A stretch of 64,000 nucleotides of DNA from an uncultured Verrucomicrobiae bacterium (GCA_963706955.1 CAVPOC010000007.1:32001-96000); one strand, 5' to 3'. Numbered from the stretch's first letter, positions 47,602-53,260 are shown. The notes: generated from the letters alone by a model not told the origin. Program-made: numbers and translations.

Positions 47602-49731
47602 ATGTCTCATTCCGTTACGGCCACTGTTGGCCAAACCTCCATCACCATTGAAACAGGCAAGCTGGCGCGACTCGCCGATGGTGCAGTTACAATTCGCTCC
47701 GGGGAGACCATTGTTCTCGTCTCCGCTGTTTCCGCGACGACCGTTAAAGAAGGTCAGGATTTCTTTCCACTTACTGTTGATTATCGGGAGAAAGCGGCGG
47801 CGGTTGGAAAATTTCCCGGCGGCTATTTCAAACGAGAAGGGCGTCCTTCGGAGAAGGAGACGCTTACCTGTCGGATGACGGACCGCCCGTTGCGGCCCCT
47901 CTTTCCGAAAGGCTATCTTTACGACACGCAGATTATCGGCGTTCTGCTGAGCGCCGACGGCGAACACGATCCCGATATGCTCTTTATCAATGGTGCCAGT
48001 GCGGCGCTTTGCGTCTCGGACGTTCCGTTTGCCGGGCCCGTGGGTGCGGTTCGCGTCGGCCGTGTTGATGGCGAGTTTATCGTCAATCCGATGCACAGTC
48101 AGCGCGCTACGAGCGACCTAGATCTTGTCTACGTGGGAACAGAGGACCAGGTGGTAATGATTGAAGGCGAAGCCAAAGAGATTTCTGAGGCCGACTTCGT
48201 CGCGGCGTTGGCTTTCGCGCATGAAGAGGTCCGCCACCTCATCGCCGCGCAACAGGAACTGATGGTCGCCGCTGGAAAACCAAAGCGCCAGGCAGCGCTC
48301 TTCGTTGTTCCTGACGAACTTCTCGAGATCGCCTATCGCGTCGCCGGCGATCGCATCGAAGCGGCGCTCTACACTCCCAGCAAGGTCGCTCGGCAAAAAG
48401 CGGTCGAGGCGCTCAGAGATGAGGTCGACGCGGCCATCCTGGAAACCTATCCCGAAGCGACGAAGTTCGAGATCAGCCAGGCTTTTGATTACCTGCAGAA
48501 GAAAGCGTTTCGGATCAGTATTCTCGACAAGAAGATCCGGTGTGATGGACGCAGCTACGAGCAAATCCGTCCCCTGAGCGCCGAGACAGGCCTTCTTCCC
48601 AGAAGTCACGGCAGCGCCCTTTTTCAACGGGGCGAAACCCAAGCCATCTGCCTGGCGACGCTGGCGCCTGCCGATGAAGCTCAAGAGCTCGACGGCTATA
48701 CGGGCGGAGAAACCAGTAAGCGCTTTATCCTCCACTATAACTTTCCGCCGTTCAGTGTCGGTGAAACTGGCCGCACGGGCAGCCCTGGCCGCCGGGAGAT
48801 CGGCCATGGAGCGCTTGCCGAGCGGAGCATCGCGCCGGTCATTCCTGAGGTCAGTGAATTCCCCTATGCCATTCGTGTGAGCAGCGAGATCATGGAATCG
48901 AACGGCTCGAGCTCCATGGCCAGCGTCTGCGCCGGTGTTCTCGCGCTGATGGATGCAGGTGTTCCCATCAGCAAGCCGGTCGGCGGGATCAGCTGCGGGC
49001 TCGTCACTGAATTCAGTGGCGACGTGATTTCGCGCTATACGTTGCTAACGGACATTATTGGCAGCGAGGATTACTTCGGCGATATGGACTTCAAGTTATG
49101 CGGCACGGAAAGCGGCATCACAGGCTTCCAACTTGACCTCAAGCTTGCCGGAATTCCGCTCAAGCTTATGGAGGAAGCGATTTATCGCGCCCGAGACGCG
49201 CGTTTCGAAGTGCTCAAGGTGATGAATCTCGCTCTCGACGCTCCGCGCGCCGAGTTAAGCCCATACGCGCCCCGGATTGAGACCATTCGGATCAAGCCGG
49301 ACAAGATTGGACTGGTCATTGGCCCAGGCGGCAAGACGATCAAAGGGATCGTGGCGGAGACTGGCGCAGAAATTAATATCGAAGATGATGGTTCGATTCA
49401 TATCTATTCGAGCAGCGGTGAGAGCCTCAAACGAGCCAAGGAAATTATCCTGGGCATGACCAAAGAAATTGCCGTTGGTGAAGTCTACCAGGGGACCGTT
49501 GTCTCAACCAAAGAGTTCGGCGCCTTCGTCGAAGTTCTTCCCGGCAAGGACGGCCTTTGTCACATTTCGGAGCTCGCCGACTTTCGTGTGAACAGGACCG
49601 AGGACGTTGTCAAAGTCGGCGATACCATCTGGGTTAAATGTATCGGTGTCGACGACAAGGGACGCGTCAAACTCAGCCGCAAGGCTGCCATGAAAGATCG
49701 CGACGCCAAGGCGGCCGGACTCGCTGCCTAG
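47602..49731 (+). CDS. pnp: Polyribonucleotide nucleotidyltransferase
   Basis: DFFPLTVDY, DRPLRPLFP, RREIGHG, ESNGSSSMAS, GDMDFK, KH and S1 domains. Confidence 0.97.
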   Translation: MSHSVTATVGQTSITIETGKLARLADGAVTIRSGETIVLVSAVSATTVKEGQDFFPLTVDYREKAAAVGKFPGGYFKREGRPSEKETLTCRMTDRPLRPLFPKGYLYDTQIIGVLLSADGEHDPDMLFINGASAALCVSDVPFAGPVGAVRVGRVDGEFIVNPMHSQRATSDLDLVYVGTEDQVVMIEGEAKEISEADFVAALAFAHEEVRHLIAAQQELMVAAGKPKRQAALFVVPDELLEIAYRVAGDRIEAALYTPSKVARQKAVEALRDEVDAAILETYPEATKFEISQAFDYLQKKAFRISILDKKIRCDGRSYEQIRPLSAETGLLPRSHGSALFQRGETQAICLATLAPADEAQELDGYTGGETSKRFILHYNFPPFSVGETGRTGSPGRREIGHGALAERSIAPVIPEVSEFPYAIRVSSEIMESNGSSSMASVCAGVLALMDAGVPISKPVGGISCGLVTEFSGDVISRYTLLTDIIGSEDYFGDMDFKLCGTESGITGFQLDLKLAGIPLKLMEEAIYRARDARFEVLKVMNLALDAPRAELSPYAPRIETIRIKPDKIGLVIGPGGKTIKGIVAETGAEINIEDDGSIHIYSSSGESLKRAKEIILGMTKEIAVGEVYQGTVVSTKEFGAFVEVLPGKDGLCHISELADFRVNRTEDVVKVGDTIWVKCIGVDDKGRVKLSRKAAMKDRDAKAAGLAA

Positions 49732-50867
49732 TGCAGTCTAACGCATTGATATAAGATACGCGAGGTGTCAGAGTCAATGAGTGAACGACAAGAAAGTAGT
49801 GATTAGTCCGCGTGAACGCAGAGAACTGAGCCGGCGGGTTCGGTCTCGAACGATAGGAGCCGAGGATGCCCCACGCGCTCAAGTTATTCTTGCGCTGGGC
49901 TCGGGGCTTGGAGTGAGTGCGGTAGCAGGCATGCGTAGGTGTAGTTCCTCTTATGTGCAGCGCTGGAGAGAGCGTTTTATGGCAAGCCGTCTGGCGGGAC
50001 TGGTGGCCCGTCATCAAGGTCGCAAACTGCGGCACGATGCCGCGAAGCTTGAGGCACGCATTTTGGAGTGGACCCGACGTGGCGCTCAGGACGGAACCAC
50101 CGACTGGAGCAGCCGTCGGTTGGCCGTCGCGCTTGGCACCAATCACATGACCGTTTCGCGGGTTTGGGCTCGGCACGGCCTTCAACCTTACCGGTTGCGC
50201 CGTTACATGCTGAGCGAGGATCGCGACTTCGAGAAGAAGGCCGCCGACATTATCGGCCTTTATCTGAACCCTCCTGATCACGCCGCCGTCTTTTGCGTAG
50301 ACGAAAAGACTGCAATCTAAGCCCTGGACCGCCTGGATCCGGTGCTGCCCCTTTCTCCCGGCAGAGCCGAGGCTCACGGTTTTGAGTATTACCGCCATGG
50401 AACTCTTTCTCTTTACGCGGCTCTTAATACGCGAAGCGGAGAAATCCTTGGTAAGACGGCTCAACGCCATACGAGCACGGAGTGCGACGACTTTCTTGCC
50501 CAAGTGATGGCCTCTCAGCCCCTCGGACGTCAGATCTACGTCATCGCTGATAATCTCTCGGCCCATAAAACCAAACTCGTCGATGACTTTCTGGCTTATC
50601 ATTTTTAAGTTTGTATTTATTTTATGTTTATTTATTTTTTTTGGTTTAATTAAGTCGAAATCTGGTTCGCCAAAGTTTGAGAGCGCGCGAGATCAAGGTC
50701 ATAGAGCAGAGCGCATCGCACATCTTCGGCTCGCCGGTCTATGGCTGAGGCTTATGCGTTACATCAAGGCGTTACATCGAGACGGATACTACAATCTAAA
50801 GGGTGCTAACTATGTAGAAAACCATACGAACCTATAGCGTGAGATCGTTCAACTGTTACAGCTGCAC
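49731..50867 (+). mobile_element. IS630-family insertion sequence (decayed), about 1.14 kb
   Basis: Imperfect terminal inverted repeats GTGCAGTCTAACGCATTGA ... TCAACTGTTACAGCTGCAC, flanked by duplicated TA (49729-30, 50868-69) in CTAG context. Confidence 0.85.
49781..50780 (+). pseudogene. IS630 DDE transposase pseudogene
   Basis: WSSRRLA, DIIGLYLNPP, CVDEKTAI*ALDR, YYRHGTLSLYAAL, IADNLSAHK, VEIWFAK, LMRYIKA; in-frame stops at 50318, 50606, 50651 and a scrambled 3' end. Confidence 0.88.
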
Positions 50868-50914
50868 TAGTACGCGGATAGTTTGTAAGAACTACAAGCC
50901 GCAATCGACGAGCT

Positions 50915-51207
50915 GTAGGGGCACTTGCGTCAAGCGCCCAGCGAATCCAGAGGCGCTTGGCACAAGCGCCTTCTCCCATGACTGAATGGTCCACAGATTA
51001 CACCGATTAACACGGATTATGGTTTGGGCGTGAAGAGCGATGAACCTGCCAAGTTCGACAATACTCTGCCAGCCGCGAATCGTAAAAAGCCCGGAAAGCC
51101 AATCGCTGAATGACTCTTACCGCTGCCGTCAGCGATTTGCCGAAGTCATCTATGTCGATCTGCGAAACCTGTGGATTTCTTTCGTCAGGCGCTTGGCACA
51201 AGCGCCT
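50915..51207. repeat. Second REP-like palindrome family (B), three copies
   Basis: GTAG-GGGCACTTG-CGT-CAAGCGCCC (50915-50939); exact 21-nt AGGCGCTTG-GCA-CAAGCGCCT at 50951-50971 and 51187-51207. Confidence 0.75.
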
Positions 51208-51277
51208 CCATAAATTTTCGTATTTCGTAGCGGGAAATATTATAACTTAACACATCTGCGGATGGCGGGGTGCATCC

Positions 51278-51331
51278 GTCGCGACCGTGTCACCACGGTC
51301 GAGGGCACGGCGGTGAGGACACCGCCGCTAC
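51278..51331. repeat. REP doublet, family A, immediately upstream of the RAYT-like gene
   Basis: GTCG-CGACCGTG-TCAC-CACGGTCG, 6-nt spacer, CGGCGGTG-AGGA-CACCGCCG-CTAC. Confidence 0.9.
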
Positions 51332-51349
51332 AACTTAAAGCGCCCGCGA

Positions 51350-51634
51350 GTGCCCAATCGACCACCGCGCCTTAAGGTCTTTCAACGTTATGACCTGCCG
51401 TTGTTTTTCGTGACGTCCAGCACGCACAAACGGAAATCACTTCTGGCCAATCAGACAGTCCACGACATCTTCATCGCCTATTGTGAAAAAGGATCACTCC
51501 GCGGGGCAGGTGTTGGCCGGTATGTGTTGATGCCCGACCACATTCATCTTTTACAAGATGGCTGCGGGGGAACGCAAGAATGCATACGCGACCTGATGGC
51601 CGGGTACGTCGCTGTGGTCTTTGAGAAGTCGTAA
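51350..51634 (+). pseudogene. REP-associated tyrosine transposase (RAYT/TnpA-REP, Y1 HUH), 3'-truncated
   Basis: LFFVTSSTHKRK and GRYVLMPDHIHL (HUH) motifs; similarity stops after about 51550 and I see no WQ..F.DH or Y...NP catalytic segment in any frame. Confidence 0.78.
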
Positions 51635-51790
51635 GTGCGCAGATTCAAGAGGCCGTCTCGTTAAAAATCACGCGTTCAACTAGAACGTGGCTTGCGCTCC
51701 GGCCCCGGTGGCAAGTGTGACGAGAACGTTACAATTCCCGTCTTTGAGGCAGGCGTGTTGTCGGCAAGTCTCCGTGGCCTTGTCTCAACT

Positions 51791-53260
51791 ATGAATCCAA
51801 ATTTATTGCTCCATAAGCTGGCCGGAAGGGTCGTCGCCACGCTCGCTGCAATCGTGATCATGGGTCACGCTCATGCTGCTTTCTACGACAGACCCGTGAC
51901 CGGGGCTCCTCCACCGCAGCCATCGTCGGAACCGTGGTTTGAACAATGGTGGAACGGAAAATACGCCAGCGGAAATTGGTTCGGCGTTCGCGACACCCTT
52001 GAGGATCGTGGTCTGAAGCTCGGCGGAAGGTGGATCGGAGTCTACTATGGGGTCGTTGACGGTGGCAGACCGGGTTTTCGAGGCAGCTACTTCGACGAGG
52101 AAATCAAATTTACTGGAGAACTCGACTTCGCCAAGGCGACCGGTTGGGAACCGCTGGAGGGCCTCAGGGGCTTTGGTGAAGTGCGCTGGCGCGACGGGTT
52201 AAATCCTAACCAGCGGGTTGGCGCCTCGGGCAACTTCCAGCCCTCTCATTTTCAATCCGGTAAACAGTGGCGCTTGATGACCTTCGGTCTCACCTACTTG
52301 ACTCCGGAGCTCTTCGGCACCAAGGAGTTTTTGACTCTAACCGGCGGTTGGATTCAGCCGCAGAAAGAATTCATCGATCAGCCCCTTTCGAAGCAATTCG
52401 TGAACAATTCTTTTGAAAGCTCGAAGGGGATTGGAGCGAACATTCCCTTCTCATCCAGCTTCACAACCTGGGGTGGCACCCTAAGGATCAAACCGGTCGA
52501 ATGGCATTATATCAAGGGAGGTCTTTTCATGTCGTATCCGCAGGCCACTTCAACCGATAATCATGGATTGGCCTTCGAAGGTTTCGGACCTGACCCAAGC
52601 CAAAACGGATTGTTCGCGATTGGAGAGATCGGATTCACTCCAAAAATCGGTCCCTCGAAACTTCCCGGTAAGTACGCCTTCGGTGGATACTACTACGAAG
52701 AGGAAAATACTTCCTTTTTCGGAACAGACTACAATGGGCGCTACGGATTCTATTGGCAGGTGGATCAGATGCTTTTTCGCGAGCCCTCCCCCGAAGCCCC
52801 CGCTCCGTTGGCCAAAGGTCCTTCAGACGGAAAATCGACGATGGACGGAAAGTCAGGCAAGGAAATAGAGGAGCCGGTTGTCGAGAAAAAGCCCAAACTC
52901 TCGGAGCAGGGTCTCTATTTCTTCAGCCTGTTCACCTACTCTCCGAAATACAACAACATCCTGCCGTTTTACTTTCACACCGGACTTGTCTATAGAGGCT
53001 TAATCCCGACGCGAGACAACGACCAACTGATGGCTGCGTTTAGCTTTGGTCAATACAGCTTCTACAATATCGAATCCCTCCAGCAACGAGGCAATGTCAA
53101 TCAGCCTAATTACACGGGCGTCCTCGAGGTAGACTATCGCATTCAATTGAACAAATGGGCCTACCTTCAGCCTTACCTCCAATACATCATTCAACCCAAT
53201 GGGACTGGTGCCATTGAGAATGCGACCATCCTCGGAGTGATGGCCGGGGTCATCTTTTGA
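51791..53260 (+). CDS. Carbohydrate-selective porin (OprB family)
   Basis: Signal peptide, GNWFGVRDTLEDRG, LPGKYAFG, EVDYRIQL, QPYLQYIIQP, terminal Phe. Confidence 0.85.
   Translation: MNPNLLLHKLAGRVVATLAAIVIMGHAHAAFYDRPVTGAPPPQPSSEPWFEQWWNGKYASGNWFGVRDTLEDRGLKLGGRWIGVYYGVVDGGRPGFRGSYFDEEIKFTGELDFAKATGWEPLEGLRGFGEVRWRDGLNPNQRVGASGNFQPSHFQSGKQWRLMTFGLTYLTPELFGTKEFLTLTGGWIQPQKEFIDQPLSKQFVNNSFESSKGIGANIPFSSSFTTWGGTLRIKPVEWHYIKGGLFMSYPQATSTDNHGLAFEGFGPDPSQNGLFAIGEIGFTPKIGPSKLPGKYAFGGYYYEEENTSFFGTDYNGRYGFYWQVDQMLFREPSPEAPAPLAKGPSDGKSTMDGKSGKEIEEPVVEKKPKLSEQGLYFFSLFTYSPKYNNILPFYFHTGLVYRGLIPTRDNDQLMAAFSFGQYSFYNIESLQQRGNVNQPNYTGVLEVDYRIQLNKWAYLQPYLQYIIQPNGTGAIENATILGVMAGVIF

Follow-up and report, generated by a model that had tools for sequence, protein, structure and literature searches.

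Lesion-type substitutions, including a one-strand C>T tract, within a strain-specific hybrid IS630-family element at the pnp stop codon of an uncultured Verrucomicrobiae bacterium

A 64,000-nucleotide stretch from the genome of an uncultured Verrucomicrobiae bacterium (G000:C7:32001-96000; hereafter “the window”) was analyzed at a locus where an earlier note, made from the sequence alone, had described a cytosine-free tract in the transposase gene of an insertion sequence (IS) of the IS630 family. The genome, G000, comprises 15 contigs and 4,155,808 bases, has a G+C content of 57%, and is 92.5% complete. The locus holds a strain-specific, defective IS630-family hybrid that lies in a CTAG sequence containing the stop codon of pnp and whose body is canonical to just past the catalytic Glu. 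A set of lesion-type substitutions, read here as single-strand damage, falls entirely within the inserted block. We hold, at about even confidence, that this insertion was a rare allele and that very few molecules, perhaps a single one, damaged or misread, underlie the consensus over it, with neither a fixed mutation nor any targeting involved; such an artefact was rated likelier than an event in the cell. The features referred to below are as follows.

49738 to 50530, plus strand: zone of private substitutions (26 in all; 6 transitions and 20 transversions) with one 2-base insertion near 49742
50596 to 50651, plus strand: C>T tract, in which 21 of 22 ancestral cytosines are T, C50600 is kept, nothing else is altered, and two in-frame TAA codons are created
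50664 to 50675, plus strand: junction of the canonical body with an inverted foreign end, in TCGCCAAA, which is common to both parents
50676 to 50867, minus strand: inverted, degraded left end of IS-B (the name given here to a different IS630-family element), comprising its terminal repeat, its leader, and roughly 45 N-terminal codons
49728 to 50866, plus strand: inserted block of 1139 bases, missing from related strains (contigs of runs X5, X6, and X8)
49781 to 50320, plus strand: N-terminal transposase fragment of 179 amino acids (aa; helix-turn-helix (HTH) region), ended by a private CAA>TAA change at 50318-50320
47602 to 49731, plus strand: open reading frame (ORF) of 709 aa, probably pnp (polynucleotide phosphorylase), named from a reading of its translation

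For the tract, the window was aligned in MAFFT with six full-length copies of the element (one from contig C4 of the same genome, two each from genomes G001 and G010, and one from G002). A cytosine was taken as ancestral where the majority of the six intact copies has C in this seven-sequence alignment. Positions 50600-50660 were re-read, and the sequence quoted in the earlier note, which lacks C from 50601 to 50655, was matched exactly. These 55 bases are the longest C-free tract in the whole 4,155,808-base genome. The runners-up (a C-free tract of 41 bases and, as the longest G-free one, a tract of 48) are all purine- or pyrimidine-rich and none is T-rich; no second long T/A-rich tract free of C or of G was encountered in the genome-wide scan. 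In the alignment, the conversion spans 56 bases (50596-50651), its start lying five bases to the left of 50601, and the bordering cytosines at 50591, 50595, 50656, and 50662 are intact. C, T, G, and A are all represented among the 5' neighbors of the converted cytosines, and the following base is A, C, G, or T alike (i.e. there is no CpA bias). The varied contexts and sharp bounds described previously were thus seen again; the statement that essentially every cytosine had been converted can be put as 21 of 22, and the left boundary shifted to 50596. Purine changes and indels are both absent inside the tract, T runs included.

The copy on C4 is unconverted. When the window was compared with this paralog, 22 differences were met in succession, all of them C>T. 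As a reference, pairs of paralogous sequences of at least 400 bases were sought in the genome; 131 were found, one of more than 17,000 bases was excluded, and the other 130 were aligned. The longest run of same-type changes in these other pairs was 5, and the pattern in the tract is far beyond chance. Reversion of T to C restores exactly the HHPQVRIHFTPTYSSWLNQVEIWF of the C4 paralog, in agreement with the conserved IS630 peptide that had been proposed from reversion alone. Metagenomic contigs from runs X1 and X5 show C at the seven tract positions that were left unmasked by the read tool. The evidence supports reading the tract as a C>T conversion that is pure, confined to one strand, and independent of context, and that struck the conserved DDE-Glu segment in a transposase of the IS630 family.

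Substitutions of another kind are found upstream. There are 26 private changes in the ca. 860 bases of the 5' part, compared to 0 in the C4 copy; over the 5' 920 bases, the count is 47 substitutions and one 2-base indel. When the window is set against the intact copies, C>T is the sole type inside the tract, as had been anticipated, and the types outside it are mixed and mostly transversions. The CAA>TAA change at 50318, previously noted as a further C>T, is private to the window versus the intact copies. The ancestral bases of the 26 changes (15 C, 4 G, 6 T, and 1 A) indicate strand coordination at C, and the changes at C become denser toward the junction, being sparse from 49812 to 50530 and then reaching 21 of 22. 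Transitions make up 6 of 26, versus ca. 60% in 38 paralog pairs of the genome (p = 1.8e-4); in 11 copies of other repeat families with private substitutions, transitions account for 46-100%. Because the changes are distributed 8/7/10 over the codon positions and 10 of 25 are synonymous, they appear to be unfiltered by selection.

The position of these changes in base runs is also non-random. Where C became A or G, the preceding base is also C in 9 of 11 cases (p = 4e-4 against the 29% expected), the altered base in these nine never being the 5'-most C in the run (p = 0.007). Viewed on the opposite strand, the nine are G>T and G>C changes that hit the 5' G or a middle G in a run of guanines and never the 3' G. 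Such G-run targets were hit at 9 of 71 sites on the minus strand and at 0 of 60 on the plus strand (p = 0.005). PMC5537945 describes G>T and G>C as the outcome of guanine oxidation; in PMC4763079, contiguous guanines are described as the most easily oxidized, and both PMC12795821 and the preprint 10.64898/2026.10.14.759081 place the end points of electron holes at the 5' nucleotides of G runs. The pattern resembles guanine-run oxidation in that 9 of 11 C transversions fall on minus-strand 5' or middle G and none on a 3' G; it differs in that one strand alone is affected. An overlay of the reversed IS, of a shifted IS, or of the flanks was also tried as the origin of the private changes; the best overlay accounted for 17 of 25, compared to 14-17 in 30 shuffles, and this candidate was rejected.

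All of these anomalies end at the ends of the element: the flank pieces carry other letters at 0 of 254, 0 of 432, and 1 of 857 positions. In the four sequencing runs described below, every contig over the IS body shows the canonical letter at each listed window-private position. There are two lesion-type signatures, one on each strand, and neither enters the flanks.

Could slow neutral decay have produced them? In that case, the element would be an old, non-autonomous hybrid that was mobilized in trans to the pnp site. The terminal repeats are retained and the interior is broken, purifying selection is not visible on the private changes, and the hybrid right end implies a history before insertion, all as decay would have it. 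However, neutral changes in this genome are ca. 60% transitions on both strands, as opposed to 23% here with a bias of strand and run position. Decay also cannot yield 21 C>T changes at 22 cytosines with nothing else altered in the 56 bases from 50596 to 50651, and relatives of a decayed lineage were found nowhere in the collections searched. We consider this explanation very improbable, and for the tract these figures refute it.

The insertion itself was delimited using the contigs of four runs (soil or rhizosphere; one run per study), which were placed on window positions 48500-52500. The best run contained 0.48 of the sampled words, and the source sample is probably outside the four runs. 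One contig each in X5, X6, and X8 (three studies) bridges 49727 directly to 50867, with the five letters CTAGT common to both sides. Upstream, the bridging contigs differ from the window flanks at 9 of 843 and 8 of 1105 letters; downstream, they differ at 0 of 151 and 0 of 221. The insertion is strain-specific, near-identical strains in three of the four runs being without the element. The element proper occupies 49731-50867 (GTGCAG...CTGCAC), and the TA dinucleotides at 49729-49730 and 50868-50869 lie within C-TA/TA-G. From the empty-site joint with its shared CTAGT, the element was placed in the TA of the CTAG that holds the pnp stop, with TA duplicated. The TAG stop at 49729-49731 lies within this target and is retained with or without the element. 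CTAG/TA is the target preference of the IS630 family.

Membership in IS630 is indicated by the TA insertion with duplication and the terminal inverted repeats of the window element, together with the DDE_3-type transposase with N-terminal HTH found in the intact paralog, of which the window copy keeps a fragment alone. That fragment (179 aa) scored 80.3 bits against NCBIfam NF033545 (IS630 family transposase), under the cut-off of 100 because it is truncated; its closest relative, among proteins of 98-314 aa, has 93% identity. The frame of the window copy has three stops ahead of the junction and further ones past it. The intact paralog (G000:C4:170062-171185) is 95% identical over window 49728-50677 and encodes a protein of 346 aa that matches NF033545 at 243 bits (cut-off, 100) and also matches Pfam DDE_3 plus HTH_23/29/32. 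In a search of 41 related genomes, seven more near-full-length copies were found in G001, G010, and G002. Another, near-identical to the canonical element, resides at a different site on a JGI metagenome contig (L031), and the transposase of C4 falls in a 90% cluster whose 273 members come from several public sources. Because copies occur at several sites and this cluster is large, the canonical element is presumably active and widespread. Another repeat, 896 bases long, lies on either side of the C4 copy as two inverted units with 99.55% identity (C4:165913-166808 and 171176-172071). The sequence directly after the C4 copy encodes an IS3-like OrfB motif and may represent an IS inserted in an IS.

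The right end of the window element is foreign. The earlier note had called the sequence at about 50675-50840 “scrambled” and had seen in it a sign of a possible artefact; it is actually the reversed left end of IS-B, with 68-77% identity versus 55% to the canonical 3' end. When window 50585-50870 was compared with 401 genomes of the order, the best foreign matches, all of them minus-strand, came from G003:C15 (76% over 155 bases, E 2.7e-18), G014:C85 (72% over 202 bases, E 2.0e-15), and G006:C21 (71%). The matched stretch corresponds to the first 140-185 bases of IS-B, terminal repeat first; read forward, the body of IS-B and the canonical element agree at ca. 71%. Over window 50676-50840, the left ends of three IS-B copies, taken in reverse, match at 68-73%, the 3' end of the canonical element at 55%, and its left end, likewise reversed, at 43%; on this last figure, the element's own left end in reverse was rejected as the source. 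In a 19-letter scan of genome contigs for a closer parent, six loci were returned, of which four are IS-B-type (the best, L045, at 77%) and two are dissimilar to the element. No second IS-B left end was found in G000. Read on the reverse strand, the right part retains broken homology to the N-terminus of IS-B (PAPFRL, RRA.DVR, QTLA), with shifting frames. IS-B left ends are mutually 85-96% alike, and long terminal repeats were not found in them; the candidate of an IS-B with long terminal repeats was rejected because ca. 30 bases matched and no more. A blend of the canonical 3' end and IS-B was also considered for the right end: 147 of 165 bases fit one or the other, with a very wide null.

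The window is identical to the canonical copy over 50652-50674 and follows IS-B from about 50664, which places the junction within the shared sequence, 13-24 bases past the last converted cytosine. Contigs from X1 and X5 reach this point with a loose end at 50674 where the canonical 3' continuation departs. The element is a hybrid with two left-type ends in which the transposase gene is cut just past the catalytic Glu. Compared with other IS630 elements (Tc1/mariner superfamily), it shares the short terminal inverted repeats, the TA duplication, and, through its paralog, the HTH + DDE_3 transposase; it differs in being a non-autonomous hybrid with another member's inverted left end as its right end. 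Whatever the origin of its substitutions, and odd though its construction is, this hybrid at the pnp stop codon is a new but ordinary IS630-family member.

Directly downstream of the IS is a hairpin-forming repeat of ca. 65 bases (50907-50971, and again near 51180-51205; core, GGCGCTTGGCACAAGCGCC). It has ca. 30 further matches in the genome at 79-96% identity and is REP/MITE-like (repetitive extragenic palindrome/miniature inverted-repeat transposable element). A 94-aa ORF (51350-51634) with an HxH-like “PDHIHLL” motif lies beside these REP-like repeats; it resembled a truncated Y1 (RAYT-type) transposase and had no Pfam match. Farther downstream of the insertion, a 522-aa ORF (51692-53260) matches the OprB carbohydrate-selective porin family at 116 bits and is apparently intact.

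The earlier note had raised an undescribed targeted hypermutation system that inactivates the transposase at its active site. In its favor, the tract covers the catalytic-Glu segment, and the stop at 50318 is likewise due to a private C>T. However, the inverted foreign end cuts the gene ca. 20 bases past the tract, so that the gene was either already dead or killed in the same event; because the transposase is cut off directly past the tract, inactivation of the active site explains nothing. The intact, presumably active C4 copy in the same genome has 0 private changes, no second instance was seen in the 130 aligned paralog pairs or in the other repeat families, and no candidate enzymes were found beyond TadA, RibD, and two small ORFs (see below). 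The case is a single copy in a single assembly, and nothing in it points to targeting or to a system. The proposal is close to refuted, and it is the least probable of the explanations weighed. Base-specific mutation of repeated or mobile DNA is known from repeat-induced point mutation (RIP), which is CpA-biased and eukaryotic, and from diversity-generating retroelements (DGRs), which are adenine-specific and depend on a template repeat and a reverse transcriptase. The asserted dissimilarity to both was borne out: A-derived changes number 1 of 26 in the 5' part of the window and 0 in the tract, there is no CpA or other next-base bias, and the C4 duplicate is untouched.

Further instances were sought in several collections. 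A converted or partly converted copy was found in none of the 41 relatives, the 401 genomes of the order, or the one JGI contig. None of the four runs carried the converted sequence, and none covered 50675-50866; with the source sample probably not among them, this result does not speak for absence. The tract was also written as a pattern with Y at the C/T positions. This pattern had 0 matches in genome contigs (records of the same genome were excluded, and the relatives differ at other letters) and one in metagenome contigs, which was wholly canonical. An exact look-up of three window ORF fragments found none on record, and an 84-aa ORF over the tract had no homologues in the size range of 46-147 aa.

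The genome-wide search for deaminases acting on single-stranded DNA (ssDNA) and for ung status returned four UDG-family matches; a deaminase-toxin family was not found, and two of the searches were uninformative (those for Pput2613-deam and DddA-like proteins, which gave no match in the genome and were silent in the controls, too). Four genes with the cytidine deaminase (CDA) fold are present, none of them on contig C7. One is TadA (182.8 bits; cut-off, 150), and another is a 342-aa frame whose best matches are RibD-type. Two small CDA-fold ORFs of 212 and 229 aa were noted at C1:127610-128245 and C8:193281-193967 (L033 and L035); they pass Pfam dCMP_cyt_deam_1 and MafB19-deam and are under every NCBIfam equivalog cut-off. 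APOBEC_N had no match in the genome.

The quality of the assembly elsewhere bears on the origin of these changes. An intact IS of another family (C2:154321-155873) has a 482-aa ORF with DDE_Tnp_1_6 and DUF772. A copy of it (C5:135457-137213; L036 558-2314) aligns at full length in the reversed orientation (80% identity; 127 gap openings). A forward alignment covers these bases as well, at 75% for 16-862 (E 8e-124) and 79% for 1150-1542. The C2 IS does not match its own reverse. The C5 copy is a consensus blend of both orientations, which is impossible in a single molecule. The contig-end overlap between C14:1-8332 and C6:1-8332 (reverse) has 98.1% identity, with 13 of 14 one-base indels in the first 2 kb; it resembles two strains or poorly polished contig ends. 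The assembly comes from a mixed population and has a poor consensus at some mobile elements, while other IS copies are clean.

A reading in which few molecules underlie the consensus is the simplest account, because the anomalies are bounded by the insertion, strand-specific, and unrepeated elsewhere, and because another IS in this assembly has a bad consensus. In a mixed population, the allele with the insertion would be scarce, and its consensus would derive from one or very few templates, or from copies of one. The flanks would have been corrected by plentiful reads from insertion-free cells. The substitutions would then record template damage or misreading, with uracil read as T and oxidized guanine copied as T or C. 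That single-molecule sequencing registers single-strand damage, including cytosine deamination, is reported in an excerpt of PMC9949150. The earlier note had named an artefact as a serious alternative; it is now rated above a biological origin, although the scrambled part that had been cited for it is real IS-B sequence and not base-calling noise.

Several points weigh against this account. Low coverage of the insertion was deduced rather than observed, the best run containing 0.48 of the sampled words. The balance of 47 substitutions to one 2-base indel is unlike the noise in the assembly's own poor regions, the tract is too clean for base-calling error, and noise at ISs is not a general property of the assembly, since the copy on C4 and others are clean. 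Genuine relatives of the right end exist in other genomes, which marks that part as real sequence. The tract (plus-strand C) and the oxidation-type lesions (minus-strand G) lie on opposite strands, for which a single read-out is insufficient. Finally, spontaneous deamination is far too slow for 21 of 22 cytosines, which implies an enzyme acting on real single-stranded DNA wherever the event occurred. Whether the event took place in a cell or on a template molecule, the most likely source of the tract is an enzyme that deaminated a stretch of single-stranded DNA.

A second account takes the damage to be real and heritable, i.e. a one-off cluster of single-strand lesions in the cell and a bacterial counterpart of kataegis. 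We regard it as possible but clearly less probable than the few-molecule artefact. Formation or acquisition of the hybrid would have left DNA single-stranded, through a template switch or break at the junction or through a recombination loop. A context-independent ssDNA deaminase, possibly a competitor's toxin, would have converted the cytosines beside the junction. Guanine runs on the partner strand would have been oxidized and copied by translesion synthesis, and replication would have fixed all of the changes on one strand. The pure C>T changes in four 5' contexts, with sharp bounds 13-24 bases from a junction with microhomology, are consistent with this course of events, as are the climbing density of C changes toward the junction, the near-absence of indels, the polymerase-like specificity (C>T, C>G, and C>A), and a right end that is real DNA with relatives elsewhere. 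The chemistry is well accounted for. On the other hand, damage limited to the 1139-base insertion, with clean flanks, would require that the element, and nothing beside it, had been in some special single-stranded state. A toxin-type deaminase was not found in the 92.5%-complete genome (a neighboring cell could have been the source), and four UDG-family genes are present. Neither another converted copy, in the 41 relatives, the 401 genomes, the JGI contig, and the four runs, nor a second long C-free or G-free T/A-rich tract in the genome was found. Moreover, the same strand was apparently hit on both sides of the junction, a misfit with a simple two-ended break.

Parallels for damage in the cell were sought among known mutators. 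Per a portion of PMC11230362, APOBEC-generated uracils lead to C>T, or to C>G via uracil excision and translesion synthesis; clustered mutation near rearrangements is treated in a section of PMC4420506, which was used for the comparison with kataegis. The element shares with APOBEC kataegis and damaged-ssDNA clusters of yeast and cancers the strand-coordinated C changes, C>T with C>G, and the proximity of a rearrangement junction. It differs in its near-complete conversion over 56 bases as opposed to scattered changes, in its bacterial host without APOBEC_N, and in its putative in vivo origin. The TpC preference of APOBEC is also absent: contexts in the tract are mixed, and the preference outside it is for 5' C. 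Among bacterial toxins, SsdA (BaDTF2) is described in an excerpt of PMC12494967 as deaminating ssDNA without strong context dependence, and DddA (BaDTF1; double-stranded DNA, 5'-TC) is stated in a passage of PMC7901873 to mutagenize surviving bacteria. The tract shares its context independence with SsdA, the single-stranded state and the enzyme being presumed here; it differs from both toxins in that a corresponding gene was not found in this genome, in searches (Pput2613-deam and DddA-like) whose controls were silent as well. Reported footprints of deaminase toxins are scattered genome-wide and are not known to form one bounded tract.

If the consensus does rest on few molecules, genomes assembled from long-read metagenomes may bear lesion signatures or blended consensus at strain-variable insertions, where nothing outvotes them, and scans of such genomes for hypermutation would need read-level checks. 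If, instead, the event occurred in the cell, it would be the first record of a natural, kataegis-like cluster of lesions in the chromosome of a bacterium. Bacteria would be seen to undergo localized, strand-specific hypermutation like that of the animal APOBEC type. The cluster would then provide a natural read-out of where, and for how long, a mobile element is single-stranded, and deaminase toxins or oxidative damage would be tied to transposon decay.

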